This document shows, one piece after another, positions 1,241-30,070 of a DNA stretch of 64,000 nucleotides. Position numbers and translations under genes: made by a program. The DNA is from Verrucomicrobiia bacterium (GTDB lineage: Bacteria; Desulfobacterota; Binatia; UBA9968). How positions within the stretch are numbered: the stretch's first letter is position 1; the number at the start of each line of letters is the position of its first letter. The stretch covers positions 64,122 to 128,121 of the forward strand of contig DATJFG010000033.1 of NCBI GenBank assembly GCA_035495775.1, in the 5' to 3' direction. The notes beneath the pieces were generated by a model, which searched no databases, was not told the DNA's origin, and was given only the letters and a program-made list of their open reading frames with translations.

Positions 1241-2083
1241 ATGGCGCAGATCGTCTCCATCATTGGCATCACGCACAACCCCTTCATGCCGCGCCTCTTC
1301 AAGCAGGCGACGCGCCCGCCCGGATGCGAAAAAGTTTTGGAGCGGATCGCGATGATGAAGGCGAAGCTCGCCGAGGCGAAGCCCGACGTGCTGGTCACGA
1401 TCGGCAACGACCATCTGCACCAGTTCTTCATGGACAACATGCCCGCCTTCATGATCGGCAAAATGGACGCCTACGCGGGCACGTTCTACGACGAGACGCG
1501 CGAGTTCGGCCTGCCCTATCACAAGATCCCCGGCGACCTCGAGCTGTCGGACGCGATCATGGAGGGAGCCTTCGAGCGCGGCGTCGACTTCGCCTACTCG
1601 AACGAGCTCACGATCGACCATTCGATCATCGTACCGCTCACCTTCATCCGCCCCGACATGGACATTCCGATCGTGCCGATCCTCACCAACTGCATCGCGC
1701 CGCCGCTGCCGCGCCCGAAACGGTTCTACCAGGTCGGCCAGGCGATCCGCGCCGTCATCGACGGCCTCGAGACCAAGAAGCGCATCGCCGTCATCGTGAG
1801 CGGCCATCTCTCGCTCGAGATCGGCGGCCCGAAGCAGTTCGAGCGCCATTTGACCGATCCCAACTTCGACGCCTCCGCCGTCGGCTGGATCAGCCAGGGC
1901 GACGTCAACGGCGCGGTCAACCACAGCTCGTTCGATCAATTGAAACAATCCGGCAACATGACGCACGGCTTTTTGAACTTTATCATGATGATGGGCGTCG
2001 CCAACGCCAAACGGCCGGCCTACGCCGAAGGGCTTGACGCCGGCTGGCCGGCGATTCCGTTTTTCAGGTACGACAGCGCTTAA
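1241..2083 (+). CDS. class III extradiol ring-cleavage dioxygenase, LigB family catalytic subunit
   Basis: 280-aa ORF with size and motifs (HNPF..., GNDHLHQF, SGHLS) characteristic of LigB/DODA-type extradiol dioxygenases. AGGAG-like SD upstream of the ATG. Confidence 0.7.
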   Translation: MAQIVSIIGITHNPFMPRLFKQATRPPGCEKVLERIAMMKAKLAEAKPDVLVTIGNDHLHQFFMDNMPAFMIGKMDAYAGTFYDETREFGLPYHKIPGDLELSDAIMEGAFERGVDFAYSNELTIDHSIIVPLTFIRPDMDIPIVPILTNCIAPPLPRPKRFYQVGQAIRAVIDGLETKKRIAVIVSGHLSLEIGGPKQFERHLTDPNFDASAVGWISQGDVNGAVNHSSFDQLKQSGNMTHGFLNFIMMMGVANAKRPAYAEGLDAGWPAIPFFRYDSA

Positions 2084-2904: not shown

Positions 2905-4269
2905 TCAGCGCGAATCTTCCCCGGTAAGGCCGTACTTCTTGAGCTTGTAACGCAGCGCTCGCTCGGTGATGCCGAGCATCTCCGCCGCGCGGGTCTGGAC
3001 GCCGCCAGCCCGTGCCAGTGCTGTCTTGATCATTCGCCGCTCGACGCCTTCGACCGCCGCCGGCATGTTCGCCTCCACGCTTTCCGTTTCTTCCAGTGTC
3101 TGCGTGCCTAGCGGCAGGTCGGTTATTCCGATAACTTCGTCCCGCGTCAGCACCACCGCCCGTTCGACGATATTTTCCAGCTCGCGAACATTGCCCGGAT
3201 AATCATAGCGCAGCAGCAGTTCGCGCGCCTCGCGCGTGAAGCCGCGGATCGTCTTGCGATTTCTTTCCGCGAAGCGGCGCAGAAAGTGGTCCATCAACAA
3301 GGACAGATCCTCGCGCCGCTCCCTTAGCGGCGGCAGAACGACGGTGACGACGTTCAGGCGGTAATAGAGATCCTCCCGAAATTCACCCGCTTTGACGAGC
3401 GCCTCGAGATTTCGATGCGTCGCCGCGAGCATACGCACATCGACACGGATCGGCTTACTGGAGCCCACGCGCTCGAACTCCCGCTCCTGGAGGACGCGAA
3501 GAAGTTTCGCCTGCAGCGGAAGCGGCAGATCGCCGATCTCGTCGAGGAAAAGCGTCCCCTTGTCGGCCAGTTCGAAGCGCCCTTGGCGCGCCGCCACCGC
3601 GCCGGTAAACGCGCCTTTCTCGTGCCCGAACAACTCGGATTCAAGCAGCGTCTCCGGCAGGGCCGCGCAGTTCACCCGGATCATCGGCCCCGACGCCCGC
3701 GCGCTCGCATAGTGAATCGCCTTGGCGATAAGTTCCTTGCCCGTTCCGCTCTCGCCGCGGATCAAGACCGTCGCCTCGCTCGGCGCTACCCGACGCACGA
3801 GTGACAGGACTTCGATCATTCTGCCGCTCTCGCCGACGATCCCCTCGATCCGGTGGCTTTTCTCCAAAGTCTCGCGCAGGTCTCGATTCTCGGAAATGAG
3901 GCGGCTACGCTCCTTGACCTGATCGATGCGGAAGAGCAGCTCATCGAGATTGACCGGCTTCGCAACGTAATCCGCCGCGCCGGTCTTAATTGCGGCAACC
4001 GCGGTCTCGACGGTACCGTAGGCCGTAATCACGATCACAGCCGCCTCGGGATTGATGGCCCGGATCGCTTTTAGCAGTTCCAGCCCCGACATGTCCGGCA
4101 TCTTTTGGTCGGTGAGAACGAGGTCGATGGCCGCTTCGCGAAATATCTCCAGCGCCCTCGCTCCGCTTTCGGCGCGGGCCGTTTCAAATCCACGCTTTTT
4201 TAAAAAGCCGACGACGAGCTCCAATTGGCTCGGCTCGTCATCGACGACGAGAATGCGAAACGACTCCAC
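2905..4269 (-). CDS. sigma-54-dependent response regulator (NtrC family)
   Basis: REC domain with a phospho-acceptor Asp context, AAA+ sigma-54 activator core (GESGTGKE, GAFTGA, ESELFGHEKGAFTG) and a C-terminal Fis-type HTH. Confidence 0.9.
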   Translation of the reverse strand: MESFRILVVDDEPSQLELVVGFLKKRGFETARAESGARALEIFREAAIDLVLTDQKMPDMSGLELLKAIRAINPEAAVIVITAYGTVETAVAAIKTGAADYVAKPVNLDELLFRIDQVKERSRLISENRDLRETLEKSHRIEGIVGESGRMIEVLSLVRRVAPSEATVLIRGESGTGKELIAKAIHYASARASGPMIRVNCAALPETLLESELFGHEKGAFTGAVAARQGRFELADKGTLFLDEIGDLPLPLQAKLLRVLQEREFERVGSSKPIRVDVRMLAATHRNLEALVKAGEFREDLYYRLNVVTVVLPPLRERREDLSLLMDHFLRRFAERNRKTIRGFTREARELLLRYDYPGNVRELENIVERAVVLTRDEVIGITDLPLGTQTLEETESVEANMPAAVEGVERRMIKTALARAGGVQTRAAEMLGITERALRYKLKKYGLTGEDSR

Positions 4270-4272
4270 CGT

Positions 4273-6009
4273 TTACCTCGCGATCGGCACGGCGATCTCG
4301 AAGCGGCTGCCGCGGCCTGCTTCGCTCTCGGCGGTGAGTTTTCCACCGTGCGCCTCAACGATCCTTCGGGCGATGGCCAGGCCCAGACCGGAGCCGCGCC
4401 CGTTGGTCGTGAAGTAAGGCTCAAAAATCCGAGGCAAAAGTTCTTCGGGAATGCCTGTGCCGGTATCGGTTACCGCAATGATGAAATTGCCGCCGACAGC
4501 TTTCGCTTCCAACACGAGCTTGCCTCCGTCGGGCATCGCCTGAATTGCGTTGAGAATAAGATTGAGCAACGCTTGCTTAATATAGTTTCGATCCAAGCGC
4601 CCGCGTGGAAGATCGGGCGACGCAGCGACCTCGATCTCGACTTTGCCCGACGCAGCATCGCCCCCGACGAGCGTCGCCACCTCATGAAGCAGCTCGTCGA
4701 TCGATATCTCTTCGGTCTTGAACTCCAGCGGCCGAGCGAGCGACAGAAACTCTTCGACAATCGAGTTGAGCCGAGCGACCTCGCCCCGCATCAGCTCGAT
4801 GAAGTGCGCGTACTCTTGTTCGTCGGTCGTCGGACGAAACTCTCCTTTGAGGCGCTGAAGTCCCATCGAAATCGCATTGAGAGGATTTCGGACCTCGTGC
4901 GCAACGGTCGCGGCGAGGTGGCCGAGTGCCGAAAGGCGTTCGCGGAGCGCGACCTCGGCTTCCAGGGTTTTCACTTGTCGGAGATTCGAGTGCTGGTTAT
5001 AAAAGATAACCGCCATACCTAGAATTCCCACGGCCACGATAGTCAAGCCCAACACGAAAACGGAGACGAGGCTGTTGCGCCACGCCGATTCCACCGGGCC
5101 TAAGGAGAGTCCGATCTTCAAAAAGCCGAGCGTCGACCCGTCGAAGCGAATCGGCTTGACGATTTCATAATCCCGCTTTCCCCCCTCACGCGCGACAATG
5201 TGGTCGAGATTGACGCCGTCGGAACGGACCTTCAATAAGAGCGGGTCGGTATCCTGCTGGTTCAACAGGGCGCGGTTGGTGTGCGCGATGATTTTGAAAC
5301 TGCCGTCCAACAGAGCGACATAATCGATGTCGGACTGGCGCCCCAGCTCCTCGATCTGGCGCTCGACGCCGATCTCGTTTTTGAAGTTCAGAATATAGCC
5401 GGCGTCGGCGTGAACCGCGATCACGCCCGGAAAGCTCTGTGCGCCGACGGCGACTCCGAACAGGCTCCCTTCCCAAAATTTTTTTTCCTTCAGTTGAGAA
5501 GGCAGCTTACCGTCTTTCTCCTCGCCGCGGGAGGGAAGCTGCCAGCGTCTCCCCCACATGAACATTCCGAAGGGCGGATGAGGAGGAAAATGTTCTTCGC
5601 CGTGCGCCTCCAACATCCGCGCCCTCATCTCCGCGGGCGTCTTGGGCGGCGGCGGGGGCTCCCAGGGCTGCCCCTGGGCGTCCAGAAGCTCGACTTTTTC
5701 CAGGCGGTTCATTGCGCTGATCCTTTTGAGTGAATCTCGATCCGCCGCGCCGGCAAAAACAAGCTGGTCGATGAGCCGCGCATTGTCGAGCAGGCGCTGG
5801 CCGATCTGCTCTTCCAGCAATGAGTTTCCGAGGATCGCGTTCTTGGCGCCGGTCTCAATCGTCTCGGCGAGCGCCCTGCCCTTGGCTTCTGTCTGCTGCA
5901 TGAGTTCGCCGTAGAGTCTTCGGCTCTCGGAGAACGCGTAGACGGAGACAAGAGCCAAAAGAAGAAAAACCGAGGCCAAGAAGTGGCGCGGTAAAAGAAC
6001 TTTCTTCAT
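4273..6009 (-). CDS. sensor histidine kinase with large periplasmic sensing domain
   Basis: N-terminal TM, ~280-aa periplasmic region, second TM, HisKA H-box ([10 protein letters not shown]) and HATPase_c N/G boxes (NAIQAM, DTGTGI, GSGLGL). Stop is 4 bp before the regulator start. Confidence 0.85.
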
Positions 6010-8606: not shown

Positions 8607-9620
8607 TCAATTCGGCTCGAAGACATCCACGATTGCCGTCGTGCCCGGCGCGCGCCCGCCCTGAACGATGCTGCCCCCGGGAAGGTAAATCCGCTTTCCC
8701 AGCACCGCGGCGCCGATGGCATGGCGGGCGAGCGGCATCGGCGCGAGCCGCGTCCAGGCGTCGCGGGCCGGATCGTAAAACTCGACCTGGTTGAAGGTTC
8801 CAAGCGACGTGTTGTCGGCGTTGCCTTCGCCGCCGAAGACGTAGAGCCGATTGTTGGCTACGGCTGCAGCGCCGCCGGAGCGGCCGGTCGGCATCGGCGC
8901 CCGCTCGCTCCAGGCGCGCGTCGCGGGATCGTACGCTTCGACATTTTTGAGCGTATAGTTGGGCCGGTTACGCCCGCCCACGGCGTAAATCCGCCCGCCG
9001 AGCGCGCCGGCGACGAGATGATCGCGCCGGTAGCGCAGCGGCGGCAGGATCTCCCACGCGTCGATCTTGGGATCGTAGACCGCGGCGTCGGACACCGGCT
9101 CGTACGCATCCGGCTTTGCGGCGCTAAAGCGCTCGCCCCCGAGCGCGTAGATTTTTCCGTCGAGCACCGCGACCGCGAGCGCGCCGCGCGGCGCCGGCAG
9201 CGGCGCGCGTTTCTCCCAGCGATCGGCGGCAGGATCGTATTGCCAAACCGAAGCGATCGGGTTGCGCTTGGCGAAGACTCCGGTGAAGCCGCCGACGACG
9301 TAGATTTTGCCGTCAACCGCTGCCACGCCGTGGTGATGCATCGCCTGGGGAATCGGCGCGGCCTGCTTCCACTTATTTCCCGCCGTGTCGTACACCTGGA
9401 CGAGGACGCTCGGCACCGTGTCGGAGCCGTAGCCGCTGATGATGTAAATCGTGTCGCCCAACGCGACGATGCCAGCCTCCTGGCGCGCCTCGGGCATGCC
9501 GCCGGCGAGACTCCACGCGCCGCCCTTGGGAAGGACGGCGGCTTCTTCCGCCGCAGCGTCGGTGCGGCAGAAGCCGAGCCCGATGGCCAGCATGAAGAAC
9601 GTTTTGATGGCAAGATTCAT
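8607..9620 (-). CDS. secreted Kelch-repeat beta-propeller protein
   Basis: Signal peptide plus six repeats of the form GxxIYxxGG...W..YDP. Confidence 0.7.
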   Translation of the reverse strand: MNLAIKTFFMLAIGLGFCRTDAAAEEAAVLPKGGAWSLAGGMPEARQEAGIVALGDTIYIISGYGSDTVPSVLVQVYDTAGNKWKQAAPIPQAMHHHGVAAVDGKIYVVGGFTGVFAKRNPIASVWQYDPAADRWEKRAPLPAPRGALAVAVLDGKIYALGGERFSAAKPDAYEPVSDAAVYDPKIDAWEILPPLRYRRDHLVAGALGGRIYAVGGRNRPNYTLKNVEAYDPATRAWSERAPMPTGRSGGAAAVANNRLYVFGGEGNADNTSLGTFNQVEFYDPARDAWTRLAPMPLARHAIGAAVLGKRIYLPGGSIVQGGRAPGTTAIVDVFEPN

Positions 9621-9862: not shown

Positions 9863-10648
9863 CTAAGACCTACGCCCTTTTTGCTCCGGCTCTTCTTGCC
9901 TTGGCGGCTCCGCGCTTCGCTTCCTCAGAAACGGAATGAGCATCGGCACCGTGCGCCGGTAATGATCATAGTCCTTGCCGAAGTAACCTTTCAGATCGTG
10001 CTCCTCGAACTGGATGCCGATGAGGATATAGGCCGTGGTCGCGGCGGCGAACAGCAGATGGCCGGCGGTCATCTGCGGCGTCGCCCAGAAGGCGATGATG
10101 AACCCCGCCATAATCGGGTGGCGGATGTGGCGATAGAGGCTCTTGGTCTGAAACTCGATGTGGTGGTACTCCTGACCGCGCAGGTAGTACCACACCTGGC
10201 GAAGCCCGAAGAGATCGAAGTGATCGACGATGAACGTGGAGAAAAGAACCGTGAACCATCCAAGCCAGAAGAGGCCGACCAGAAGCGCGCTGCCGGCGGG
10301 ATTCTCCACGCTCCAAATCACAGACGGCAGCGGACGCCACTGCCAGTAGAGCAGGAGCAGAGCGAGGCTGGCGAGAAGAACGAACGTGCTGCGCTCCGCC
10401 GGAACCGGGACGATCTTCGTCCACGACGCCTTGAAACCGGGACGCGCCATGACGGTGTGCTGAATGGCGAACAGGCCGAGGAGAATGAGATTTATGGCGA
10501 GACTCACTGCAAGACCCGATTCGGCGCCCGAGTCGATCGACTTGGGGACCGCGAGGTTCCCGGTAAATCCGATCGCGTAGAGAAACGCGAAGCCAAATAT
10601 CGCGTAGCAGACCAGACCGTAGAGAAACGTCGCCACCCTGCTCATCAT
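9863..10648 (-). CDS. isoprenylcysteine carboxyl methyltransferase (ICMT/PEMT) family membrane methyltransferase, MddA-like
   Basis: Multi-TM protein with the C-terminal motif RHPIMAGFII...EE typical of the ICMT family. Confidence 0.6.
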   Translation of the reverse strand: MMSRVATFLYGLVCYAIFGFAFLYAIGFTGNLAVPKSIDSGAESGLAVSLAINLILLGLFAIQHTVMARPGFKASWTKIVPVPAERSTFVLLASLALLLLYWQWRPLPSVIWSVENPAGSALLVGLFWLGWFTVLFSTFIVDHFDLFGLRQVWYYLRGQEYHHIEFQTKSLYRHIRHPIMAGFIIAFWATPQMTAGHLLFAAATTAYILIGIQFEEHDLKGYFGKDYDHYRRTVPMLIPFLRKRSAEPPRQEEPEQKGRRS

Positions 10649-10812
10649 GACCCTCCCTCTATTGACCGTCGCAACTATCCCGCCTTGGAATGCGCAACCT
10701 TATGGCTTGGGTCTCGGCTAAAGTCAAACGCCGAGCGCGACTCACTGAGTCGCTGGTGATTCTCGAGCCGCAGCGGCGGTCAGGCGCGGTTTGCGCGGCG
10801 GTAAACAACGTC

Positions 10813-10915
10813 AAACTTTTAATTGTCTTTTCATTTGTTCCCAGACCTCTACGCTCATACATTGTGCCTGCGACGTTCACGCGCCTGGCTTGAACGCGAT
10901 CACCGATGCTCGCTC
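10813..10915 (+). repeat. copy 1 of a ~103-bp intergenic element
   Basis: Aligns without gaps to 13914..14016 at roughly 92% identity. AT-rich 5' part (AAACTTTTAATTGTCTTTTCATTTGTTC) followed by a GC-rich part containing the inverted repeat CGTTCACGC-N7-(T/G)TGAACG. Confidence 0.85.
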
Positions 10916-10949
10916 GCTGAGGAGGGCCCAATGGTCGTGCAAATCGTGA

Positions 10950-12626
10950 TTACTTCGCGGCCGCCTTGCGCCGGCCGATGGCGGCTTCGGCCCGCGGGCT
11001 GATCGCGCGCTCGACGACGATATTGAGCAGCGCGGGCCGGCCGGAAGCGAAGGCGCGCTTCAGCGCGGGCGCCAAATCCTCCGGGCGCTCGACAAACTCA
11101 CCGTGGCCGCCCAGGCCCTGTACGACCTGCTCGTAGCGCGTCTGGAGCAGATCGGTCGCAACCGGCCGGCCGTAGAGACCGAGCTGGATTTGCCGGTCGA
11201 TGCCCCAAGCCGAATCGTTGCCCAGCAGCGCCACGATATTGAGCCGGTGGCGCACCGCGGTATCGAATTCCATCGCGTTGAAACCGAACGCCCCGTCGCC
11301 CGTCATCATGATCACGCGGGAATCCGGGTAGGCCAGCTGGGCGGCGAGAGCCGTGGGCAGCGCAGTGCCCAGCATCCCGAGGCTCGAATGGTGCAGCCAA
11401 CGCTTGGCTCCGAGCGCCGGCAGATAGGCGCGGCCGAAGTGGCAGAAGTCGCCGCCGTCGAACACGACGCAGTCGTCGGCGCCGAGCATGGACTTGACCG
11501 TTTGGTGCACGAACATGGCGTGCATCGGCACGCCCGGCCGCGCCAGCTCCTCGGCCCAGCGCGCTTGCGCCGCTCGCACCGCGCGCAGCTCCTCGATCCA
11601 CGGGAGCTCCGTCCACGCAAAGCCGGCGGCGGCCTCGGTCATCTGCTCCAGGACGCGGGTGACGTTTCCGACGATGCCGACGGCGACCTCGCGATTGCGC
11701 CCGATCTCGCTCGGAGAAGGATCGACCTGGATGATCTTCGCATCCGCCGCGACGTTGGGCGGGCGGCAGAAGCCGATGACGAAGTCCTGCTTGCGGCCGA
11801 GCAGCACGACGACGTCGGCGTCGCGCACCTTGCCCGCGACGCGATTCAGGCCGCGCTCGAAAAAACCGAACACGTAGGGATGATCGTCGGGAACCAGGCC
11901 GCGCGCCTGCTCTTCGGTGACGACCGGCAGGCGGGTGGTTTCGATGAAACGCTTAAGCGCCGCGCCGGAGAGCGTGTAGCCGGCGGCGCTGCCGGCGACG
12001 AGCAGCGGTCTTTGCGCCTCGCGGAGGAGCTCGACGGCCCGGCGCGCGAGCGCGGCGTCTGGCGGCGCCGGCTCTTCCGCCCGCCAATCGTCCGGCCGGG
12101 TGGCGGCGACCTCGTCCTCTTCCACGCTTTGCTCCTGCACGTCGATCGGGATCGTCAGGTGAACCGGACCGCGGCGGCCGGCGAAAGCGAGGCGCAGGGC
12201 GCGCGCGATGAATTCGGGGATCCGGCGGATATCGTCGACCATGAACGAGCCCTTGGTGATCGGCTCCGCCATGCGGACCTGTTCGATCTCCTGCTGCGCG
12301 CCCCGGCCCAGATCCTTGCGGTCGGCACAGCCGGCGATCGAGATCACCGGCGCTTCGGTATGCATCGCGCTGGCGAGGCCGGGGATCGCATTGGCGAAAC
12401 CCGGAGTGGTGTACATGCACACGCCCGGCTGTTCTTTGATCCGCGCCCAGGCGTCCGCCATGTGCACCGCGGCCTGCTCATGGCGCGTATCGATGATGCG
12501 GAAGTCTGCGTCCGCCATCGCGTCGAGCACCGGCAGGATGTGATCGCCGGCCAGGGCGAAGATATTCTTCACGCCCGCGCGCTCGAGCGCTCTACAGATC
12601 AAACGGCTTCCCGTCACTCGCGCCAT
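10950..12626 (-). CDS. thiamine pyrophosphate-dependent enzyme (acetolactate synthase / benzoylformate decarboxylase family)
   Basis: 558 aa with TPP-enzyme N-terminal, central and C-terminal domains (GDG...N TPP-binding motif). Confidence 0.8.
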   Translation of the reverse strand: MARVTGSRLICRALERAGVKNIFALAGDHILPVLDAMADADFRIIDTRHEQAAVHMADAWARIKEQPGVCMYTTPGFANAIPGLASAMHTEAPVISIAGCADRKDLGRGAQQEIEQVRMAEPITKGSFMVDDIRRIPEFIARALRLAFAGRRGPVHLTIPIDVQEQSVEEDEVAATRPDDWRAEEPAPPDAALARRAVELLREAQRPLLVAGSAAGYTLSGAALKRFIETTRLPVVTEEQARGLVPDDHPYVFGFFERGLNRVAGKVRDADVVVLLGRKQDFVIGFCRPPNVAADAKIIQVDPSPSEIGRNREVAVGIVGNVTRVLEQMTEAAAGFAWTELPWIEELRAVRAAQARWAEELARPGVPMHAMFVHQTVKSMLGADDCVVFDGGDFCHFGRAYLPALGAKRWLHHSSLGMLGTALPTALAAQLAYPDSRVIMMTGDGAFGFNAMEFDTAVRHRLNIVALLGNDSAWGIDRQIQLGLYGRPVATDLLQTRYEQVVQGLGGHGEFVERPEDLAPALKRAFASGRPALLNIVVERAISPRAEAAIGRRKAAAK

Positions 12627-12657
12627 CCGCGCTCTCCTCTCACAGTATGTTTTTATC

Positions 12658-13692
12658 TCATGCGCCGAAGAACTCGACGAAGCGCTTCTTGATCTCCTCG
12701 GTCCGGCGCTCGAGTTCGTCCGGGTCGACCGTGAGAAGCTTGAGGTCGCCGAGCTTCGGCTTGTCGGCGGGGTAGGTCACCTCGGGATGCGGCACGTAGA
12801 GTCCCTCGTCGTCGGCGAGGAACTGCTGCACCTCCTTGGTGAAGATAAAATCGGTGAAGAGCCTGGCGGCCGTCGGGTGCGGGGCGAAGCTGGTGATCGC
12901 CGAGGCCGTAGTGACCAGCGGCACGCCGTCCTGCGGATAGACGATGCCGAGCGGATTGCCCTTTTTCTTCTGCGTGTAGAGAAAATATTCCGCGCCGTTG
13001 GCGCCGACCAGGCGCTCGCCCGACGCTACCACCTGCGCGGGATCGTGAACCGACTGCGCGAGATGAGGTTTGTTCTGGGCCAGCTGCTTGAAATAGTCCC
13101 AGCCGTAAAGCTTGACCAACGCCAGCATGTAGGTGGCGATGGCTCCGCTGTAGCCGGGGTGCGCCGTCACGAGCTTTCCTTTCCACTTTGGATCGAGGAG
13201 ATCTTTCCACGCCTTGGGCGCGTCGGTGCTCGCGAGCAGCTTGGAATTGTAAGACATCACGATGAGGAATGCGCGCCAGCCGAAAGCGATCCCGTCCGCG
13301 TCTCGGAAGCTTTCAGGGAAGCGGTCCGCTCCCGCGGGCGTGTATTTGGCCAGCATCCCTTTTTTCTTGAGCAGGACGTAGTGGCTGGCGTCGGAAGAGT
13401 TGAAGACATCGGCGATTTTAAGCCCCGCGCCCGACTCCTGCATGATGCGCTGGAGAATTCGCTCCGAGCCCGAGCGCTGAACGTCCACTTTAAGGCCTTG
13501 ATGGGCTTGCTCAAACAGGCTGGCGACCCGCTGGGCGGTAGAGACGGCCGCGCCCGTGTACCAGACGACGGTCCCTTCCCGCCGCGCTTCGGCGAGCCTC
13601 GAATCCTGCGCCGAGCCCGTCGCGGCCGCAAGCAGCACCGCCGGAAGAGCGGCCATCGATATCCACGCGCGCGCGATTTTTTGACAGCGCAT
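12658..13692 (-). CDS. ABC transporter periplasmic substrate-binding protein, iron(III)/solute-binding family 1 (FbpA/AfuA-like)
   Basis: Signal peptide and SBP_bac_1-like sequence features. Confidence 0.65.
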   Translation of the reverse strand: MRCQKIARAWISMAALPAVLLAAATGSAQDSRLAEARREGTVVWYTGAAVSTAQRVASLFEQAHQGLKVDVQRSGSERILQRIMQESGAGLKIADVFNSSDASHYVLLKKKGMLAKYTPAGADRFPESFRDADGIAFGWRAFLIVMSYNSKLLASTDAPKAWKDLLDPKWKGKLVTAHPGYSGAIATYMLALVKLYGWDYFKQLAQNKPHLAQSVHDPAQVVASGERLVGANGAEYFLYTQKKKGNPLGIVYPQDGVPLVTTASAITSFAPHPTAARLFTDFIFTKEVQQFLADDEGLYVPHPEVTYPADKPKLGDLKLLTVDPDELERRTEEIKKRFVEFFGA

Positions 13693-13913
13693 CGGTCCTC
13701 CTCAATGCTTCCGCATAAATCTTCGAGTGCCTCTCCGATTAACCCAACCCTAGGCAAAAGTCCATCGTGGGCAGTGTCTCGCTTTGACCTAATGTCAGGC
13801 GCGGCCCTTCGAGCTCGCGCCGCCCTGGATTCCGAAGGCGCAGGCATGAAAGCCGCCGGCGAGCTCCTCGGGATTCCAAATCTCAAAACTTCAGATCGGG
13901 AGCAGATTTCATT

Positions 13914-14016
13914 AAACTTTTAATTGTCTTTTCATTTGTTCTCAAACCTCTAAGCTCATACATTGTGCCTGCGACGTTCACGCGCCTGGCGTGAACGCGA
14001 TCGCTGATACGCGCTC
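13914..14016 (+). repeat. copy 2 of the ~103-bp intergenic element (5' leader of mgtE)
   Basis: See copy 1. This copy ends 15 bp before the mgtE GGAGG and ATG and contains the perfect inverted repeat CGTTCACGC-gcctggc-GTGAACG at 13975..13997. Confidence 0.85.
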
Positions 14017-14031
14017 GCCCGGGGAGGAGAC

Positions 14032-15345
14032 ATGGTGGAAACGAGCTTGACGCTTCCGGAGGTTTTCGAGGCCTGGCAGGTCCTTTCGATGGAGGAAAGG
14101 ATCGCGGGATTCGAGCTCCTGCGGCGCGAGGAAGCCGAGAAGCTGTTCCAGTCGCTCAACGCGCAGGATCAAGCGCAGCTCCTGAGCGCGCTGCCCGCGG
14201 CGGAGCGCCGGTTGTGGATCCGATCGCTGGCGCCGGACGAGGTGGCCGACGTCATTCAGGAGGCTCCGGTGGAGGAGCGCGAGGCGCTCATCCAGCTGCT
14301 GGACGATGCGACGCGTCGAGAGGTGAAAGGGTTGCTGGATTACGCGGAGGATCAGGCCGGCGGTCTCATGAACCCGCGCTACGCGCGGCTCCGGCCCGAG
14401 ATGAGCGTCGACGAGGCGATCAGCTATCTTCGGCGCGACGCCCGCGACCGCAAGGAGACCGCTTACTACGCCTACGTCGTCGACCCCGAGGAGCGCCTGC
14501 TGGGAGTGGTCACGTTCCGCGATCTGTTCACGGCGGGGAAAGACAAACTCGTGAAAGAGATCCTGCGCGCCGACGTGATCACGGCGCCCGAGGACCTCGA
14601 TCAGGAGGCGCTCGGGCGGCTGTTCACACGGCATAATTTACAGATGATCCCGGTCGTCGACGCCAACCGCCGCATCAAAGGCATCGTCACGTTGGACGAC
14701 ATCGTCGACGTGATTCAGGAAGAGGCGACCGAGGACATCCAGAAGATCGGCGGCGTCGAGGCCCTGGACGCGCCGTACCTGCAGATTCCGCTGTCGCGCA
14801 TGATCCGCAAGCGCGCCGGCTGGCTCTCCGTCCTGTTTCTGGGCGAGATGTTGACCGCGACCGCCATGGGCTATTTTGAAGTCGAGATCGCGCGCGCCGT
14901 CGTCCTCGCGCTGTTCGTCCCGCTGATCATCAGCAGCGGCGGCAACTCGGGCTCGCAGGCCTCCACGCTGGTCGTGCGCGCGATGGCGTTGGGCGAGGTG
15001 CGGATCGCCGACTGGTGGCGCGTGATCCGGCGCGAGGTCATGACCGGATTGACGCTGGGATCGATCCTGGCGTCCATCGGCCTCGCGCGCATTCTTTCGT
15101 GGCAGATGTTGTTCGGTTCCTACGGCGAGCACTACGTTCTGGTCGCCGCGACCGTCGCGCTCAGCCTGATCGGCGTCGTCCTCTGGGGAACCCTGGCCGG
15201 CTCGATTCTGCCTTTTCTTCTCCGACTCGTCGGTTTCGATCCGGCCAGCGCCTCGGCGCCTTTCGTCGCGACGCTCGTCGACGTTACCGGGCTCATCATC
15301 TACTTCAGCATCGCCGCCGCGGTGCTGCGGGGAACTTTGTTGTAG
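14032..15345 (+). CDS. mgtE: magnesium transporter MgtE
   Basis: N-terminal MgtE_N domain, tandem CBS domains, and a C-terminal five-TM MgtE channel domain (GGNSGSQ motif). Confidence 0.9.
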   Translation: MVETSLTLPEVFEAWQVLSMEERIAGFELLRREEAEKLFQSLNAQDQAQLLSALPAAERRLWIRSLAPDEVADVIQEAPVEEREALIQLLDDATRREVKGLLDYAEDQAGGLMNPRYARLRPEMSVDEAISYLRRDARDRKETAYYAYVVDPEERLLGVVTFRDLFTAGKDKLVKEILRADVITAPEDLDQEALGRLFTRHNLQMIPVVDANRRIKGIVTLDDIVDVIQEEATEDIQKIGGVEALDAPYLQIPLSRMIRKRAGWLSVLFLGEMLTATAMGYFEVEIARAVVLALFVPLIISSGGNSGSQASTLVVRAMALGEVRIADWWRVIRREVMTGLTLGSILASIGLARILSWQMLFGSYGEHYVLVAATVALSLIGVVLWGTLAGSILPFLLRLVGFDPASASAPFVATLVDVTGLIIYFSIAAAVLRGTLL

Positions 15346-15498
15346 CGCCCTTTAACTGACTTGCTTAATTACCGCACCTCGGACAACTCTCCATCCTTGT
15401 CAGAATCGTGAACCAAGTCTTCCAGTCGGCAGTTGTAAGGATGTATCCGCCGACGTTCTTGCACATGCGCATGGACGCGCAAAAGAAGCGCTTCAAAT

Positions 15499-15546
15499 AA
15501 TCGAGCCGGGATCTTTTTTCAAAACCAGTACGACCTGGCCGTCGGA
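15499..15546. repeat. 48-bp near-identical copy of the 3' coding end of gene 19063..19677 (gene-fragment remnant)
   Basis: ATCGAGCCGGGATCTTTTTTCAAAA(C/G)CAG(T/C)ACGACCTGGCCGTCG is shared with 19138..19186 and encodes ...DGQVVL(V/L)LKKDPGSI on the minus strand. Confidence 0.7.
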
Positions 15547-18760: not shown

Positions 18761-19062
18761 AACCTCTCCAGATCTCAGCATTCGACGGCTTCGACCATGC
18801 GCGAAGCCGCATGGAGCTAAAGCCGCCGCTGTGTTGTCCTTGAGTTTTTGTTAGCCCCTCCCAATGGAGGGGTGATGGGGCAGGCGGAGCCGGCAAGGTG
18901 AGGGTGGCGCGAGGGCCGTCCAGCTGATCGCCCGGTCTACGGAGGATTTCAGCCCAGGATTATCATCAAGCGTAATTGTGCGTCAAGTGTTCGGAACAGA
19001 GCGATGTACGCGGGGAGTCTTTTATTTGACGATTGCGGCGACGGCGAAGCAGCTCCACCTTC

Positions 19063-19677
19063 CTAGAACCCCGCCCCTGTCACGCTCACCTGGCTGTAAT
19101 GTTTTTGCAGCGAATCGATGAAGGCGACGGTCGCCGTGATCGAGCCGGGATCTTTTTTCAAAAGCAGCACGACCTGGCCGTCGCTCCATTGCTTCGCATC
19201 GCGATCGGAGCGGAGCGCTTCACCGTATTTCGCAGCGGTCGAGGAGATCAATTTTTCCCAAGTCTCGAAGGCGTCCTCGCGATAGCTCGTCGCGATCGCC
19301 GCGAGCCGGCCGTCCATGTAGACGCCGAGCACGCGCGTGGCGCCTTTCGGCAGGTAGCGCGGCAGCAGCGCGAGCAGCTCGGCGCCCGACGCCCCTTTGC
19401 CCGCATCGATGGCGCGACGCGACGAGCGGAGCGTCGCGATCGGCTCGCCGAGCGTCAAGCCGTTTTGGCTTCGGCTGATCGGCAGCGAAGAGAGACGGCG
19501 CGACGGCGCAACTTGCGACGCGGCGCCCGAGCCGCCGGATTCGAACTGGACGAAACCGTTCTCCTCGCTCTCCTGGCGCATCTGCGCTCCGACGAGGCTT
19601 TTGAGCGCAAGACCGAGAAAGAAGAACACGAACGCAGCGACGATGAAAGCGGTCGTCGACCGAATCGATCTCGCCAT
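19063..19677 (-). CDS. hypothetical membrane-anchored protein
   Basis: N-terminal TM helix (AFIVAAFVFFFLGLAL). No recognisable catalytic motif. A paralogous C-terminal fragment is present at 15499..15546. Confidence 0.4.
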   Translation of the reverse strand: MARSIRSTTAFIVAAFVFFFLGLALKSLVGAQMRQESEENGFVQFESGGSGAASQVAPSRRLSSLPISRSQNGLTLGEPIATLRSSRRAIDAGKGASGAELLALLPRYLPKGATRVLGVYMDGRLAAIATSYREDAFETWEKLISSTAAKYGEALRSDRDAKQWSDGQVVLLLKKDPGSITATVAFIDSLQKHYSQVSVTGAGF

Positions 19678-19911
19678 GGTTGTTCCCTCCGTAGCGGGAT
19701 AGGCGGAGCAACGCATGTGCCAGGCGAAAAGATGTTGCTAATCCAACGCGGCGCGCGCCGAGCTACGGCCGTGATTTGTAACCGGTGAGCTTTTACGTGA
19801 TCCGGCCGCGGCGCGGGCGCGCGCGGGGATGCGCGATGTTATGAATCCACTCCGCGGAGTCCGAGGAGATTCCTTTTCTTCCCTTATCGCTTCCGGCCCG
19901 CGTACTTTTTC

Positions 19912-22966: not shown

Positions 22967-24652
22967 TTACCGGCCGCCTTTCTTCGGATAAAAATATTCG
23001 TATGTCCCCTCTTCCACCTTCTTGAACACCGTCGAGACCGTCTTCCACGGGTCCTTGGCGAAATCTTCGTAGCGTCCCGGCGCGCTGACGCCGGGGATGT
23101 GCGGCACCCAGTCCTCGGACAATAAATCTTTCGGGTCGCCGTAGCGCGACGCGAGCGCGCGCGCCTCGGGGCTGTCGAGCGAGGTCATCCGCCCCTTGTC
23201 GATGATATTGACCCAGGTGTTCTTCGTGCCGCGCACGCGCAGGCGATACGTCGAGAAGTAGTTGTGCACGTGCCACCAGTGGTCGTTCGGCAGGTTGTTC
23301 TTGGTGGTGAAGTCGACCCATTCCTTCGCCCATTCAGCCGAGTCGGGGCTGTGGTGCACGCGGATGCCGTGGCCGTAGTGGAGCACGCCGCTGCGGTTCC
23401 GCTCGGTCACATTGTCGCCGCGCATGTTCTCGTCCGGCCGCTTGTAATATTTGGGGTTGGTCCCGAGCGCGACCTCGTAGAGCTGCCAGTATCCCGGCCG
23501 GTCGTGATAAGGATAGGTCACCTCGTTGATCTTGGGATATTTCAAAAACTCGCGCCACAGATCGCCGTAGACGCCGCCTCCTTTCACGTCGTCGATGTAG
23601 CCGTCTTTTAGATGGACCTCGACGCGAGGGTAATGGCCCGCGTGATTCGCGGTGCCGGCGATGACGCCGCTCACGCGCGGCGTCGGCGACCGCGGGTTCC
23701 ATTTTTTCTGAAACGCCGGATACTCGACGACCGAGTAGGGAAAGCGCCCGGTTGCCTGATTGGGGAACATGTAGAGGTGTCCCTGCTGGTAGACGCCGCG
23801 CGCCCAGCGCGACGCCATGTCTTCGGTCAAATCGGCCGAGAGATTCGTCCCCTCAGGGTCGGCGACCTCCAGACGGTCGGCCCAGGCGATCGGCTCGATC
23901 GCGCGCTCTTCGGTCAAGCGCCAGACGTCGCCGGGAAACGCCGAGATCTTGCTCATCATGGTCCAGCGGTTGTCGAAGACATTGACGCCGAGAAATTTAT
24001 CCTCGTGCGGCCGCATGTAGCGCCTGAGCGTCGTGGTGCCGCCGGTGCCCCAGAAGACGCCCTTCACCGAGGGATTTTTCTCCACATATTCCTTGATGCC
24101 TTTGGCGACGTTCTCCCGCTCCAGTTTCTTGAGCGTCGCGCGCGCCTTCTCCGAAATTTCCGCCCGCGGCGGATACAGCTGCTCGTAGAGATCGGGACGG
24201 CGCTCCTTGAGCCATTTCTTCGGCACCTCGGGATCGGGGAACATCTCCTCCATCCAGCGCCGCGCCTCCATGTAGCCCTGCTCGGCGGTCGTCTGGCGGC
24301 GCGCCTTGATCGCTTCGAGCGCGTCGGCGCGGGAGACGCCGGCGAGCTCGTAGCTCGGCAGCACGTGGAGCTTGACGCCGCGCTCCTCCATCGCGCGGCG
24401 GATCGCCTCGACGACCATATCCTCTGACGACGCCTCGGTCACGAGCGCGACCGACTCGCCGGACTTGAGGCTCCCCAGCCCTTCGCCCTGGAGACCCGTC
24501 GTCTGGCGCGCCACGGCGCGCGCGAACGGCATGATCTCGTCGATCGACTTCGGCGCTGTGAGATACGACGGAAAGCGCGGCTGGCTGTATTTGCCCTCCG
24601 CGGCTAGAGCGAGCGAAGCGAATAATGCGGCCAAGAGGATCAGGCGTTTCAT
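22967..24652 (-). CDS. secreted protein of unknown function, paralog 1 of a three-member family
   Basis: Signal peptide (MKRLILLAALFASLALA). Shares N-terminal PRFPSYL.PKSI.EIMPFARA and C-terminal DPWKTVS...YEYFYPKKGG with 28370..30070 and 30081..31781. Confidence 0.75.
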   Translation of the reverse strand: MKRLILLAALFASLALAAEGKYSQPRFPSYLTAPKSIDEIMPFARAVARQTTGLQGEGLGSLKSGESVALVTEASSEDMVVEAIRRAMEERGVKLHVLPSYELAGVSRADALEAIKARRQTTAEQGYMEARRWMEEMFPDPEVPKKWLKERRPDLYEQLYPPRAEISEKARATLKKLERENVAKGIKEYVEKNPSVKGVFWGTGGTTTLRRYMRPHEDKFLGVNVFDNRWTMMSKISAFPGDVWRLTEERAIEPIAWADRLEVADPEGTNLSADLTEDMASRWARGVYQQGHLYMFPNQATGRFPYSVVEYPAFQKKWNPRSPTPRVSGVIAGTANHAGHYPRVEVHLKDGYIDDVKGGGVYGDLWREFLKYPKINEVTYPYHDRPGYWQLYEVALGTNPKYYKRPDENMRGDNVTERNRSGVLHYGHGIRVHHSPDSAEWAKEWVDFTTKNNLPNDHWWHVHNYFSTYRLRVRGTKNTWVNIIDKGRMTSLDSPEARALASRYGDPKDLLSEDWVPHIPGVSAPGRYEDFAKDPWKTVSTVFKKVEEGTYEYFYPKKGGR

Positions 24653-28369: not shown

Positions 28370-30070
28370 CTAACGCTTATCGCCGCCGCCTTTTTTCGGA
28401 TAAAAATATTCGTAGCTGCCGTCTTCGATTTTTTTCATCACCATGGAGACGGTCTTCCACGGGTCCTTGGCGTAGTCCTCGTAGCGGCCCGGCGCGTTGA
28501 TGCCCGGGAGATACGGCGCCCAATCGTCACTGAGGACTTCGTTCGGATCGCCGTATCTGGATGCCAGCGCGCGGATCTCCGGCGATTTGAGCGAGGTGAG
28601 CTCACCTTTGTCGATGAGCGTTACCCAGGTACTTTTCGTCCCGCGGATTTTGACCTGATAGGTAGGCAGCGTGTTGTGAATGTGCCACCAGTGGTCGTTC
28701 GGTAGGTTGTTCTGCTTCGCGAAATCCATCCACTCCTTGGATTCCACCGGGCCCTGCGGACCGTGGTCTAATCTCAGGCCGAAGCCCCAGTGGATCGTCC
28801 CCGCGTTGTTGCGCTCGGAGCTGTTCTCCCCTTCCATGTTTTCGTCGGGGCGCTTGAAGAATTTCGGATTGGTGCCCGTGCCCGCCTCGTAGATCCACCA
28901 GTAGCCGGGCTGATCGTAATAAGGATATTTCAGCTCGTTGATCTTGGGATATTTGAGAAACTCGCGCCACGCTTCGCCGTAAAGCCCGCCGCCTTTCACC
29001 TCGCTCACGTAGCCGTCCTTGACGTGAACCTCGATGCGCGGATAGTTGCCGGCGTGATTGCCGGTGCCGGCGAAAACGCCGTTCACTTTCACGAGGGAAG
29101 GATACAGGTATTCCTTCGTGAACGCCGGATAATCGACCGCGGAATAGGGAAAGCGGCCCATCGCCTGATGCGGGAACATGAAGAGATGTCCCTGCTGGTA
29201 GGCGCCCTTCGCCCACGCGAGCGCCTGCTTCTCGTCGATTTCGAAATTGAAGTTCGTCCCTTCGGGATCGCTCACGCGCACCTGGTCGATCCAGCGGAGC
29301 GGCTCGATGACCCGCTCTTCCACCAGCCGCCACACGTCGCCCGGGAAGGTCGAGGCCTTGTTCATCAGCTCGTAGCGGTTATCGAAGATGAAGTTGCCGT
29401 ACAATTTATTGTGGTACGGCTCGATCTGCCTGCGCGTGTTGGTGCGGCCGCCGCGGCGCCAGAAAACCATGTCGACTTCTTTGTGCTGATCGAGATACTT
29501 GACGATCGCCTGCGCGACGTTCCGGCCGCCGAACTTCCGCGCCAGATCGACCTGCTCTTGCGACATCGCCTCTTCTTTCTCGAACATCGCCTTGTAGAGA
29601 TCGGGCCGCTTCTCCTTGAGCCATTTCTTCGGCACCGAAGGATCGGAGAACGCGTTCAAGATCCAGCGGTGCGCCTCCATATAGCCCTGCTCGGAGGTGA
29701 ACCAGCGGAGCGCCTTCACCGCCTTCAGCGCCTCGTCTTTGCTGACGCCGAGAAGCTGGTATTCGGGCACGATCTGGATTTTCACGCCGCGCTCTTCGTA
29801 CGCGCGCTTGATCGCCTGCAAGACCATCTCGTCGGCCTTGGGCTCGGTGAAAATCGCGACGGTCTGACCTTTTTCCGCCAGACCGAGCGGCGTCCGTCCG
29901 CCGGTCTGCCTGACCGCGGCGCGCGCGAATGGCATGATGTCCTCGATCGATTTCGGCGGCTTTAAATACGACGGGAAGCGCGGCGCCGGATACTTCGCCT
30001 GCTCCGCGCTCCAGACATATCCGAACGCCGCGCATGCGACGAAGATCGCAGAGATGATCCAGCGCTTCAT
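28370..30070 (-). CDS. secreted protein of unknown function, paralog 2
   Basis: Signal peptide (MKRWIISAIFVACAAFG). Roughly 65-70% identical to paralog 3 over the N-terminal 150 aa. Confidence 0.75.
   Translation of the reverse strand: MKRWIISAIFVACAAFGYVWSAEQAKYPAPRFPSYLKPPKSIEDIMPFARAAVRQTGGRTPLGLAEKGQTVAIFTEPKADEMVLQAIKRAYEERGVKIQIVPEYQLLGVSKDEALKAVKALRWFTSEQGYMEAHRWILNAFSDPSVPKKWLKEKRPDLYKAMFEKEEAMSQEQVDLARKFGGRNVAQAIVKYLDQHKEVDMVFWRRGGRTNTRRQIEPYHNKLYGNFIFDNRYELMNKASTFPGDVWRLVEERVIEPLRWIDQVRVSDPEGTNFNFEIDEKQALAWAKGAYQQGHLFMFPHQAMGRFPYSAVDYPAFTKEYLYPSLVKVNGVFAGTGNHAGNYPRIEVHVKDGYVSEVKGGGLYGEAWREFLKYPKINELKYPYYDQPGYWWIYEAGTGTNPKFFKRPDENMEGENSSERNNAGTIHWGFGLRLDHGPQGPVESKEWMDFAKQNNLPNDHWWHIHNTLPTYQVKIRGTKSTWVTLIDKGELTSLKSPEIRALASRYGDPNEVLSDDWAPYLPGINAPGRYEDYAKDPWKTVSMVMKKIEDGSYEYFYPKKGGGDKR

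Follow-up and report, generated by a model that had tools for sequence, protein, structure and literature searches.

A sequence element of about 125 bases, present twice in a 64,000-nucleotide stretch of bacterial DNA (the window), is probably the promoter and 5' untranslated leader of the magnesium transporter gene mgtE in a narrow lineage, with one of the two copies its truncated relic at a rearrangement junction (probability about 0.7). The copy directly upstream of mgtE (copy 2) would be the working one. The other (copy 1), consisting of the element and the first 7 nt of mgtE, would be what a segmental rearrangement left behind at its junction when an operon of a TPP-enzyme gene and a solute-binding protein (SBP) gene came to lie between two mgtE 5' regions.

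The finding holds but is an ordinary one, because the element, here called E, is neither a riboswitch nor a mobile repeat. Its importance beyond annotation is small: it provides a candidate mgtE promoter and leader in a poorly known soil lineage, and it shows that mgtE of the window is not under M-box control. It also offers a clear local case of operon-sized blocks being reshuffled, with truncated copies of control regions left at the junctions. Such relics may mimic conserved intergenic elements or riboswitch candidates in scans, and their signature, first codons of the parent gene within the copy and a synteny break at its end, could be used to filter out false leads.

The repeat pair and the surrounding features

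The first-pass annotation had described a same-orientation repeat of about 103 bp with roughly 92% identity. Positions 10813-10917 and 13914-14018 are indeed ungapped direct repeats, identical at 97 of 105 positions (92%), and the homology is longer than claimed, extending past the SD and ATGGT(C/G)G (ATGGTSG) to 10937 and 14038, respectively, with 107 of 125 positions identical. At this length E takes in GGAGG and 7 nt of coding sequence at the start of mgtE. The longest identical runs between the copies are 37 and 28 nt, and shuffling of the window gave an expectation of 0 matches to either half of E. Also the AT-rich character of the 5' half was described correctly, the GC content of the first 50 nt being 28% compared with 62% for the window. 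The same holds for copy 2 running into the SD and ATG of mgtE (ATG at 14032), for the ATG and short open reading frame antisense to the TPP-enzyme gene after copy 1 (ATG at 10931, 23 aa), and for the distances to the divergent minus-strand starts, which are 165 nt (10648) and 222 nt (13692). The features, compared where indicated with the sister contig L001, are the following:

9863..10648, minus strand: mddA-like methanethiol S-methyltransferase gene (ICMT family; NF045656 at 351 bits, cut-off 270)
10649-10812: spacer between the mddA-like gene and copy 1
10813..10937, plus strand: E copy 1, duplicating the mgtE 5' region in truncated form (107/125 against 13914-14038), with SD, ATG at 10931 and ATGGTCG
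10835-10840 and 10858-10863, plus strand: copy 1 equivalents of the candidate -35 and -10 hexamers
10874-10896, plus strand: copy 1 equivalent of the inverted repeat, with one mismatch
10931..11002, plus strand: 23-codon open reading frame and stop after copy 1, antisense to the TPP-enzyme C-terminus (translation MVVQIVITSRPPCAGRWRLRPAG*)
about 10936-10938: point at which copy 1 passes into the 3' flank of the TPP-enzyme gene; 10936 is also the first base of the TPP block that is homologous to L001
10936..13776, minus strand: TPP-enzyme and SBP operon block with its own 84-nt upstream region (Pfam and NCBIfam matches)
10950-12626, minus strand: TPP-enzyme gene
12658-13692, minus strand: SBP gene
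13777..13913, no strand: spacer of 137 nt, lineage-specific, separating the SBP upstream block from E (alignment with L001)
13912-15362: conserved E-mgtE block, 92.3% nucleotide identity to L001
13914..14031, plus strand: E copy 2, 118 nt long and abutting the mgtE ATG at 14032; 88% conserved and in the same position in L001
13936-13941 and 13959-13964, plus strand: candidate -35 TTGTTC and candidate -10 TACATT, separated by a 17-nt spacer, read from the sequence
13975..13997, plus strand: inverted repeat CGTTCACGC-N5-GCGTGAACG with perfectly pairing 9-bp arms, in the presumed 5' UTR
14032..15345, plus strand: mgtE, reaching the curated cut-offs of Pfam MgtE_N, CBS and MgtE and of TIGR00400 (331 bits, cut-off 233)

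The repeat pair is real and the copy 1 junction is no assembly artefact: an independent contig (L054), obtained from a different sample, matches the junction at 100%, and in a third sample the gene order and the 301-nt gap of the copy 1 locus are the same.

Mosaic history of the locus

In copy 1 the mgtE SD and the initial 7 nt of the mgtE frame, the ATG among them, are joined to the sequence that flanks the TPP-enzyme gene on its 3' side. Its ATGGTCG (10931-10937) matches the mgtE starts of L001 and of another relative (L049), and the switch to the TPP-enzyme flank takes place at 10936, the very base where the TPP block of L001 begins. As it contains this start of the mgtE frame, copy 1 is a truncated mgtE 5' region and no independent element, which supports the earlier suggestion of a relocated or decayed duplicate of the leader. 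The 23-codon open reading frame was judged to be a consequence of the fusion; at the position equivalent to 10931, L001 lacks an ATG. Copy 1 thus has the coding start of mgtE and ends at a synteny break, and it is absent from the closest relative.

In that relative, L001, mgtE is 95% identical to that of the window at the amino acid level and the TPP enzyme 97% identical. The TPP-SBP block shows 96.7% nucleotide identity to positions 870-3709 of L001 and has sharp borders. Homology of the E-mgtE block runs from 13912, the left edge of E, to 17 nt past the mgtE stop, so that the block has the footprint of a transcription unit. Synonymous divergence (dS) between the window and L001 is 0.077 for the TPP-enzyme gene, 0.096 for the SBP gene and 0.229 for mgtE (Fisher p = 1.6e-7), the change occurring across the spacer 13777..13913. 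The spacers between the two blocks could not be aligned: L001 has an unrelated one of about 50 nt (about 3710-3759) in this place, so that the recombination breakpoint lies within 13777..13913. No other copy of the 137-nt spacer was found in the window or in the related loci.

Copy 1 is a derived state, L001 having the order TPP-SBP-E-mgtE without copy 1 and with a different left flank. It appears to mark a rearrangement junction, since copy 1 is lacking from L001, the blocks differ in dS and the gene order of the relatives is scrambled. Two further contigs (L057 and L058) have the same SBP-TPP block near ABM and Kelch genes, in another order and orientation and without mgtE. A 45-nt gene fragment lies immediately outside the mgtE block on its right, and L001 has a 26-nt direct repeat of its own (25/26 identical) around its TPP-SBP module, with a sequence unlike that of E. 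With the block contexts of L057 and L058, the gene fragment and the L001 repeat, the neighbourhood is prone to rearrangement. E itself is confined to a narrow, uncultured lineage of soil bacteria: it was not found upstream of mgtE in four relatives with 75-83% protein identity, and nothing is conserved there.

Three routes would each give the observed architecture, and the exact one can be proposed only with reservation. In the first (a), the 3.1-kb unit TPP-SBP-spacer-E-ATGGTCG would have been duplicated in tandem and most of the first copy then deleted. In the second (b), a TPP-SBP-E-mgtE fragment would have been integrated by one-sided homologous (homology-facilitated illegitimate) recombination, and in the third (c), a circularised fragment by a single crossover within E. 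Tandem duplication followed by a remodelling deletion is known from amplification-remodelling in Salmonella and E. coli. The present case resembles it in that the relic is the terminal piece of the 3.1-kb unit and stands immediately before the start of the unit, as a footprint of the join point, but the route also needs a second event whose end-point happens to fall on the left edge of E. On the left, copy 1 starts within 2 nt of where the homology between copy 2 and L001 starts, which argues against route (a), as this would require a lucky deletion end-point. Routes (b) and (c) need the recipient arrangement mddA-E-mgtE, and none was found among the relatives.

Relic duplications at junctions arise by homology-facilitated illegitimate recombination or by single-crossover integration of circularised DNA (de Vries & Wackernagel 2002, cited in PMC5361080; PMC3240628). 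The orphan arrays in Vibrio T6SS and Rhs loci are comparable relics (PMC5361080). As in the junction relics of these two sources, a new module stands here beside a conserved anchor with a truncated copy of the anchor on its far side, and block divergence is mosaic in the absence of recombinase genes. The present case differs from them in that the donor and recipient arrangements were not recovered and the microhomology at the junction is minimal (CG).

Promoter, leader and operator readings

The first approximately 50 AT-rich nucleotides of E would hold the promoter, with TTGTTC-N17-TACATT as candidate hexamers and a T/A-rich tract upstream of them, and the last approximately 60 GC-rich nucleotides would form an ordinary leader ending in the SD GGAGGAG. 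Between copy 2 and L001, eight differences (10%) are found in the first 77 nt and ten (24%) in the last 41 nt before the ATG, the proportion of synonymous differences (pS) in mgtE being 0.197. The GC-rich transcribed part has accordingly diverged about as fast as synonymous sites and the AT-rich 5' part about half as fast, which fits a promoter followed by an unconstrained leader, although the contrast (8/77 vs 10/41, p = 0.06) comes from small counts, E being represented by no more than three versions. Neither hexamer varies among copy 1, copy 2 and L001, the changes being located in the spacer, where five positions vary, and in the leader.

E resembles a sigma-70-type promoter with a 5' UTR in its position directly upstream of the gene, in being AT-rich in a GC-rich genome and in the 17-nt distance between the hexamers. 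Also the SD 6-7 nt before the ATG and the conservation among close relatives only are those of an ordinary promoter and leader. However, the hexamers agree with the sigma-70 consensus at only 7 of 12 positions, this being the consensus of E. coli and perhaps not that of the present phylum, and the consensus scan of 10600-14100, with its threshold of 9/12, reported no site. The promoter activity of E is thus putative.

The inverted repeat had been reported as perfect in copy 2, which is correct, but its arms are 9 bp long and the loop is N5 instead of N7, and in copy 1 a single G->T mismatch interrupts it. The alternative that survives best, although unlikely, takes E as a transcription-factor operator or promoter module functional in both copies. 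The factor would bind either this palindrome or a tandem CTTTTnATT(T)GT direct repeat, and copy 1 would drive regulated antisense transcription into the convergent TPP-SBP operon or act on the divergent mddA gene. The tandem repeat, as read from the sequence, is located in the AT-rich half, has a period of 11-12 bp typical of OmpR/PhoB-type sites, and overlaps the candidate -35. Copy 1 was stable in three independent samples, and its promoter half is nearly intact: copies 1 and 2 differ at 3 of the first 77 positions and at 16 of the remaining 49 (p < 0.0001), and also without the junction-proximal columns the difference is retained (3/77 vs 5/28, p = 0.03). Such a pattern is unlike that of a neutral relic and could reflect selection acting on the promoter half of copy 1; however, gene conversion of one copy by the other would yield the same pattern. 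Outside the junction cluster the copy-specific changes are few, approximately 4-5 in each copy, and numbers so low and so similar cannot show selection on copy 1.

The neighbouring genes do not favour the operator either. The SBP gene has its own conserved 84-nt upstream block, which excludes E, and in the mddA homologues of two relatives (L055 and L056) the 200-275 nt of upstream sequence are devoid of E, homology ending 8 nt upstream of the start. Of the three versions only copy 2 has a perfect dyad, one pair being broken in copy 1 and one in L001, and neither another palindrome site at three or fewer mismatches nor any other operator-like site was found in the window. The shared operator for divergent genes suggested in the first-pass annotation is hence not supported. 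Nor is a palindromic transcription-factor operator, its dyad being unconserved, not recurring in the window and of a kind expected by chance: perfect 9-bp inverted repeats with a loop of 3-10 nt number eight in the window, with 5.6 expected from Markov simulations. There is a slim chance, somewhat below that of the operator, that copy 1 is alive in another sense, with its promoter half under selection and an mgtE-type, possibly Mg2+-responsive antisense transcript entering the convergent TPP-enzyme/SBP operon, or that the 3.1-kb module is excisable or amplifiable. If the former were true, antisense transcription from copy 1 would couple the expression of an enzyme dependent on Mg2+ and thiamine diphosphate to the Mg2+ uptake regulon.

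Mobile repeat and structured RNA readings

A small mobile or recombinogenic repeat (MITE-like or att-like), flanking a translocatable or excisable 3.1-kb TPP-SBP segment, is a very improbable reading of E. The two-gene module is bracketed by direct repeats, as it is in L001, and the left border of TPP-SBP is equally sharp in these two closely compared contexts; the block also occurs in the other contexts of L057 and L058. The repeat in L001 is, however, a different sequence, and the block borders are those of an operon, as expected of any operon found in varied contexts. Copy 1 includes the mgtE start and first codons, which makes it gene-derived and not something inserted beside mgtE, and the right end of E is the SD and start codon of that gene. 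The small non-autonomous repeat proposed earlier is not supported by the search for further copies: the 64-kb window has only the two, GTDB representative genomes, JGI metagenome contigs and viral contigs, when scanned for exact patterns, yielded nothing beyond chance matches, and blastn of plasmids with E gave no match. Terminal inverted repeats are lacking, the ends AAACTTTTAATT... and ...GGAGGAGACATGG not being complementary. The repeat-flanked segment encodes only the TPP enzyme and SBP, with no integrase, transposase or recombinase, and its neighbours are mddA, Kelch, mgtE and DUF2867. A MITE, a dispersed repeat and a site-specific integrative element are disfavoured by the copy number in the window and in the collections scanned, the lack of terminal inverted repeats and the lack of a recombinase. 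Excision of TPP-SBP by RecA-dependent recombination between the copies would be physically possible because of the identical runs of 37 and 28 nt.

In other phyla mgtE is often preceded by an M-box riboswitch, and the M-box (ykoK leader, RF00380), found upstream of mgtE and mgtA, resembles E in being the leader of a Mg2+ transporter gene. Least probable of all is nevertheless that E is a new cis-regulatory RNA (riboswitch-like or attenuator) controlling mgtE by Mg2+ with the 9-bp hairpin as its core. With approximately 60 transcribed nucleotides E is much shorter than the M-box and has neither a conserved multi-helix structure nor a terminator. The Rfam covariance search found no match at the gathering threshold anywhere in the window, M-box included; at E <= 10, copy 1 gave nothing and the region of copy 2 a single chance snoRNA match of 10 bits inside mgtE. 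The whole leaders fold no better than shuffled sequences (z-scores from +0.84 to -1.48). The copy 2 hairpin alone is stable (-18 kcal/mol, z = -3.8), but the energy is -12.2 kcal/mol in copy 1 and, with an internal mismatch, -14.5 kcal/mol in L001. Relative to copy 2, the L001 stem has one compensatory change (T-A to C-G) and one disrupting change (G.G), and copy 1 one disrupting change (C.U), a comparison of three versions with low power; the minimum-energy fold of L001 skips the stem. The intrinsic terminator scan found none in either copy, the hairpin at 13975-13997 being followed by CGCGATCGCTGATACG and no U-tract. Together with the near-synonymous divergence of the transcribed part, the unconserved upstream regions of the four mgtE relatives and the chance frequency of such inverted repeats, these results speak against the riboswitch-like leader of the first-pass annotation. 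M-box or riboswitch identity is disfavoured, as there is no covariance-model match, no excess of folding and a leader diverging about as fast as synonymous sites.

Many named relatives of the mgtE and TPP-enzyme genes carry the label Candidatus Binatia; the NCBI source label is Verrucomicrobiae.

Extent and distribution of the repeated element

The repeated element, here called E, is judged from sequence comparison to be the lineage-specific leader and putative promoter of mgtE, an ordinary object, of which copy 1 would be a truncated relic at a rearrangement junction. In a pairwise alignment within the window, 10813-10917 (copy 1) and 13914-14018 (copy 2) were identical at 97 of 105 positions with no gaps, and dinucleotide shuffles of the window gave no matches to either half of E. 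The two direct repeats of about 103 bp, 3.1 kb apart, described by the first-pass annotation were thus real, and the similarity extends past the limits set there, taking in the Shine-Dalgarno sequence and ATGGT(C/G)G and ending at 10937 and 14038, respectively (107 of 125 positions). The GC content of the first 50 nt of E is 28%, compared to 62% in the window. The inverted repeat also noticed there, CGTTCACGC-N5-GCGTGAACG, is indeed perfect in copy 2 (13975-13997), but copy 1 differs by one G-to-T mismatch and the loop is N5. After copy 1 come an ATG at 10931 and an ORF of 23 codons, antisense to the thiamine-diphosphate (TPP) enzyme gene. The genes around the two copies are the following:

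9863-10648, minus strand: mddA-type methanethiol S-methyltransferase, ICMT family (NF045656 above cut-off)
10950-12626, minus strand: thiamine-diphosphate enzyme, acetolactate-synthase-like superfamily (no NCBIfam equivalog cut-off reached)
12658-13692, minus strand: periplasmic solute-binding protein, SBP (domain/family search)
14032-15345, plus strand: mgtE (TIGR00400 above cut-off)

Homologues of the mgtE protein run to thousands. The best two are 95% identical (on the 6.8-kb sister contig L001) and 83% identical (L002); many more lie at about 75%, and the named ones of these come from MAGs under various labels, one of which is Candidatus Binatia. In L001 the order is TPP(-), SBP(-), E, mgtE(+); its E occupies the same position as copy 2, to which it is 88% identical. 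Upstream of mgtE in four more distant loci (L002, L049, L050 and L053; 75–83% at the amino acid level) no trace of E was found, and the upstream neighbours differ from those of the window.

Exact-pattern scans with two conserved sub-patterns of E covered GTDB representative genomes, JGI metagenome contigs and viral contigs, the coverage being incomplete as the JGI collection evidently does not contain L001. The AT-rich pattern had 34 matches in the GTDB genomes, the -10-region pattern 12 in the JGI metagenomes, and the two sub-patterns 0 and 8 in the viral contigs. All of these were rejected as chance matches of 20–25 nt, mostly in AT-rich DNA, which blastn confirmed. Since the scans gave chance matches only and the distant mgtE loci lack E, the element appears confined to a very narrow lineage and, as far as can be seen from the sequences, to the mgtE locus and one extra copy. 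With no true matches in these collections and no blastn match of E in plasmids, the suggestion of a small mobile repeat was not supported. Also, according to the gene annotation of the window, no integrase or transposase lies within or adjoins the repeat-flanked segment.

Constraint and folding of the mgtE leader

The first 77 nt of E, which take in the AT-rich tract and the candidate hexamers and reach into the leader, differ between copy 2 and L001 at eight positions (10%), and the 41 nt before the ATG at ten (24%). Synonymous sites of mgtE differ at a proportion of 0.197 in the same comparison, so that the leader evolves at a near-neutral rate and the 5' part at about half of it. The hexamers TTGTTC (13936-13941) and TACATT (13959-13964), 17 nt apart, are invariant in copy 1, copy 2 and L001, while five positions of the spacer between them vary among the three versions. 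Such a pattern would be that of a promoter with an unconstrained leader. TTGTTC-N17-TACATT is a weak match to the consensus, which is that of E. coli (7 of 12 positions), and a consensus promoter scan found no promoter; for these reasons we infer promoter activity only from position, composition and conservation.

A riboswitch-like leader was the first of the roles proposed for E in the first-pass annotation. When both copies were folded on both strands, and sub-regions as well, the isolated copy 2 hairpin (-18 kcal/mol) was the only fold that beat shuffled sequences. In the L001 stem one compensatory change (T-A to C-G) is found together with one G.G mismatch relative to copy 2. Folds of the whole E or of the presumed leader were no better than shuffles (z from +0.84 to -1.48), and the minimum-energy fold of the L001 leader leaves the hairpin unused. 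Perfect 9-bp inverted repeats with short loops number eight in the window against 5.6 expected. No U-tract follows the copy 2 hairpin, and a consensus scan found no terminator within E. The Rfam scan named in the first-pass annotation gave no match in the whole window at the gathering threshold and nothing relevant for either copy at E<=10, and E is therefore no M-box. With no Rfam match, folds close to shuffles and a leader evolving about neutrally, the riboswitch reading was not supported, the conservation pattern being the opposite of what a riboswitch would lead one to expect. Neither was a shared operator for the divergent genes supported. By eye, no convincing sigma-54, IHF or PhoP-box matches were seen.

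Copy 1 at a synteny break

Copy 1 includes the Shine-Dalgarno sequence, the ATG and the whole ATGGTCG, which also opens mgtE in L001 and in L049. Because L049 has this opening and no E, ATGGTCG belongs to mgtE and not to a portable element. Directly after it, at 10936-10938, the sequence switches to the 3' flank of the TPP gene, and the switch point is the base where the alignment of the TPP-SBP block to L001 starts (10936-13776 in the window, 870-3709 in L001, 96.7%). L001 has no copy 1, and its left flank is unrelated and AT-rich. As the gene start is included, the block border coincides and L001 lacks copy 1, copy 1 is a shortened duplicate of the region 5' of and into mgtE, placed on a synteny break, which bears out and sharpens the first-pass suggestion of a decayed duplicate leader.

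The junction is not an assembly artefact. Over window 10395-11439, which takes in the start of mddA, the spacer, copy 1 and the 3' end of TPP, identity to L054, a 2.4-kb contig of a near-identical strain in another sample, is 100%. Outside this stretch it is 98.9%, and L054 has a 92-bp deletion in mddA, which corresponds to window 10303-10394; the mddA product called in L054 has 230 aa, compared to 261. In a third sample TPP, a 301-nt gap, mddA, Kelch and ABM follow each other in the order and spacing of the window.

The architecture to be explained is mddA, spacer, E-ATGGTCG / TPP-SBP, spacer, E, mgtE. We infer the mechanism, and three routes would each yield exactly this arrangement. In route (b), a foreign TPP-SBP-E-mgtE fragment would integrate through a homologous exchange in mgtE together with an illegitimate join at codon 2-3 of the recipient's mgtE, the process known as homology-facilitated illegitimate recombination (summarised in PMC5361080 and PMC3240628). 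In route (c), such a fragment would circularise and integrate within E by a single crossover; PMC3240628 describes this fate for linear DNA. Under both, copy 1 would once have been the head of a complete mgtE unit. In route (a), the 3.1-kb unit 10938-14038 would have been duplicated in tandem, most of the first copy being deleted later. Routes (b) or (c) are favoured, because the left end of copy 1 falls at the left edge of the E-mgtE block. A relative with mddA adjoining E-mgtE was not found among the contigs with mddA homologues (L054-L056), of which L054 has the arrangement of the window and the other two, too short as contigs, lack E. The distances to L001 are 9/77 for copy 1 and 8/77 for copy 2 in the first part, and 14/49 and 11/49 in the rest. 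Since the copies are about equally distant from L001 and no such relative was found, no route was chosen.

The two copies differ from each other at 3/77 positions in the first part and 16/49 in the rest, or 5/28 when the junction-proximal columns are left out (p = 0.03 vs 3/77). This skew could reflect selection on a still-active copy 1 promoter, gene conversion or small numbers; that copy 1 drives regulated antisense transcription into the TPP-SBP operon, a reading based on the same skew, is improbable. The TPP-SBP genes could be lost through recombination between the copies, which share identical runs of 37 and 28 nt; no deletion allele was observed among the loci compared.

Mosaic history of the neighbourhood

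Between the window and L001, dS is 0.077 for TPP, 0.096 for SBP and 0.229 for mgtE (Fisher p = 1.6e-7), and the spacers between the TPP-SBP and E-mgtE blocks, 137 nt in the window and about 50 nt in L001, are unalignable. The values of 0.08–0.10 in 10936-13776 against 0.23 in 13912-15362, a nearly three-fold difference between adjacent operons, indicate recombination between close lineages, with a breakpoint in the 137-nt spacer. Two more distant contigs, L057 and L058 (TPP 84%), also carry the SBP-TPP block in the vicinity of ABM and Kelch genes, the Kelch sharing 89% identity with window 8607-9620; they lack mgtE, and the genes are ordered and oriented differently. Operon-sized blocks, each bounded by an upstream region of its own and by its stop codon, are reshuffled here.

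Block borders also carry two other short direct duplications. The first, of 45 nt (43/45), pairs window 15500-15544 with 19139-19183. The latter falls inside the ORF 19063-19716(-), where it encodes SDGQVVL[V/L]LKKDPGSI; the former closely follows the stop codon of the DUF2867 gene, immediately beyond the right edge of the E-mgtE block, and looks like another gene-fragment relic at a junction between blocks. The second, of 26 nt (25/26), flanks the TPP-SBP module in L001 (471-496 and 3708-3733); its right copy begins exactly where homology to the window breaks, and a 20-nt stretch matches window 19030-19049 (19/20).

The short dispersed motif GGGTCAGGTCTTGRATCTTGA, absent from the window at <=3 mismatches, occurs in intergenic DNA of L001 (513-533), L055 (1-21) and L056 (62-82, upstream of the mddA homologue), and in L058 at 5380-5400(-) and 9313-9333(+) and, in degenerate form, at 1618-1641(-). 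In this clade the motif may represent a REP-like element. Elsewhere in the window, three paralogous genes of about 1.7 kb, two of them adjacent, were seen at 22985-24605, 28397-30008 and 30105-31716 (62–84% nucleotide identity).
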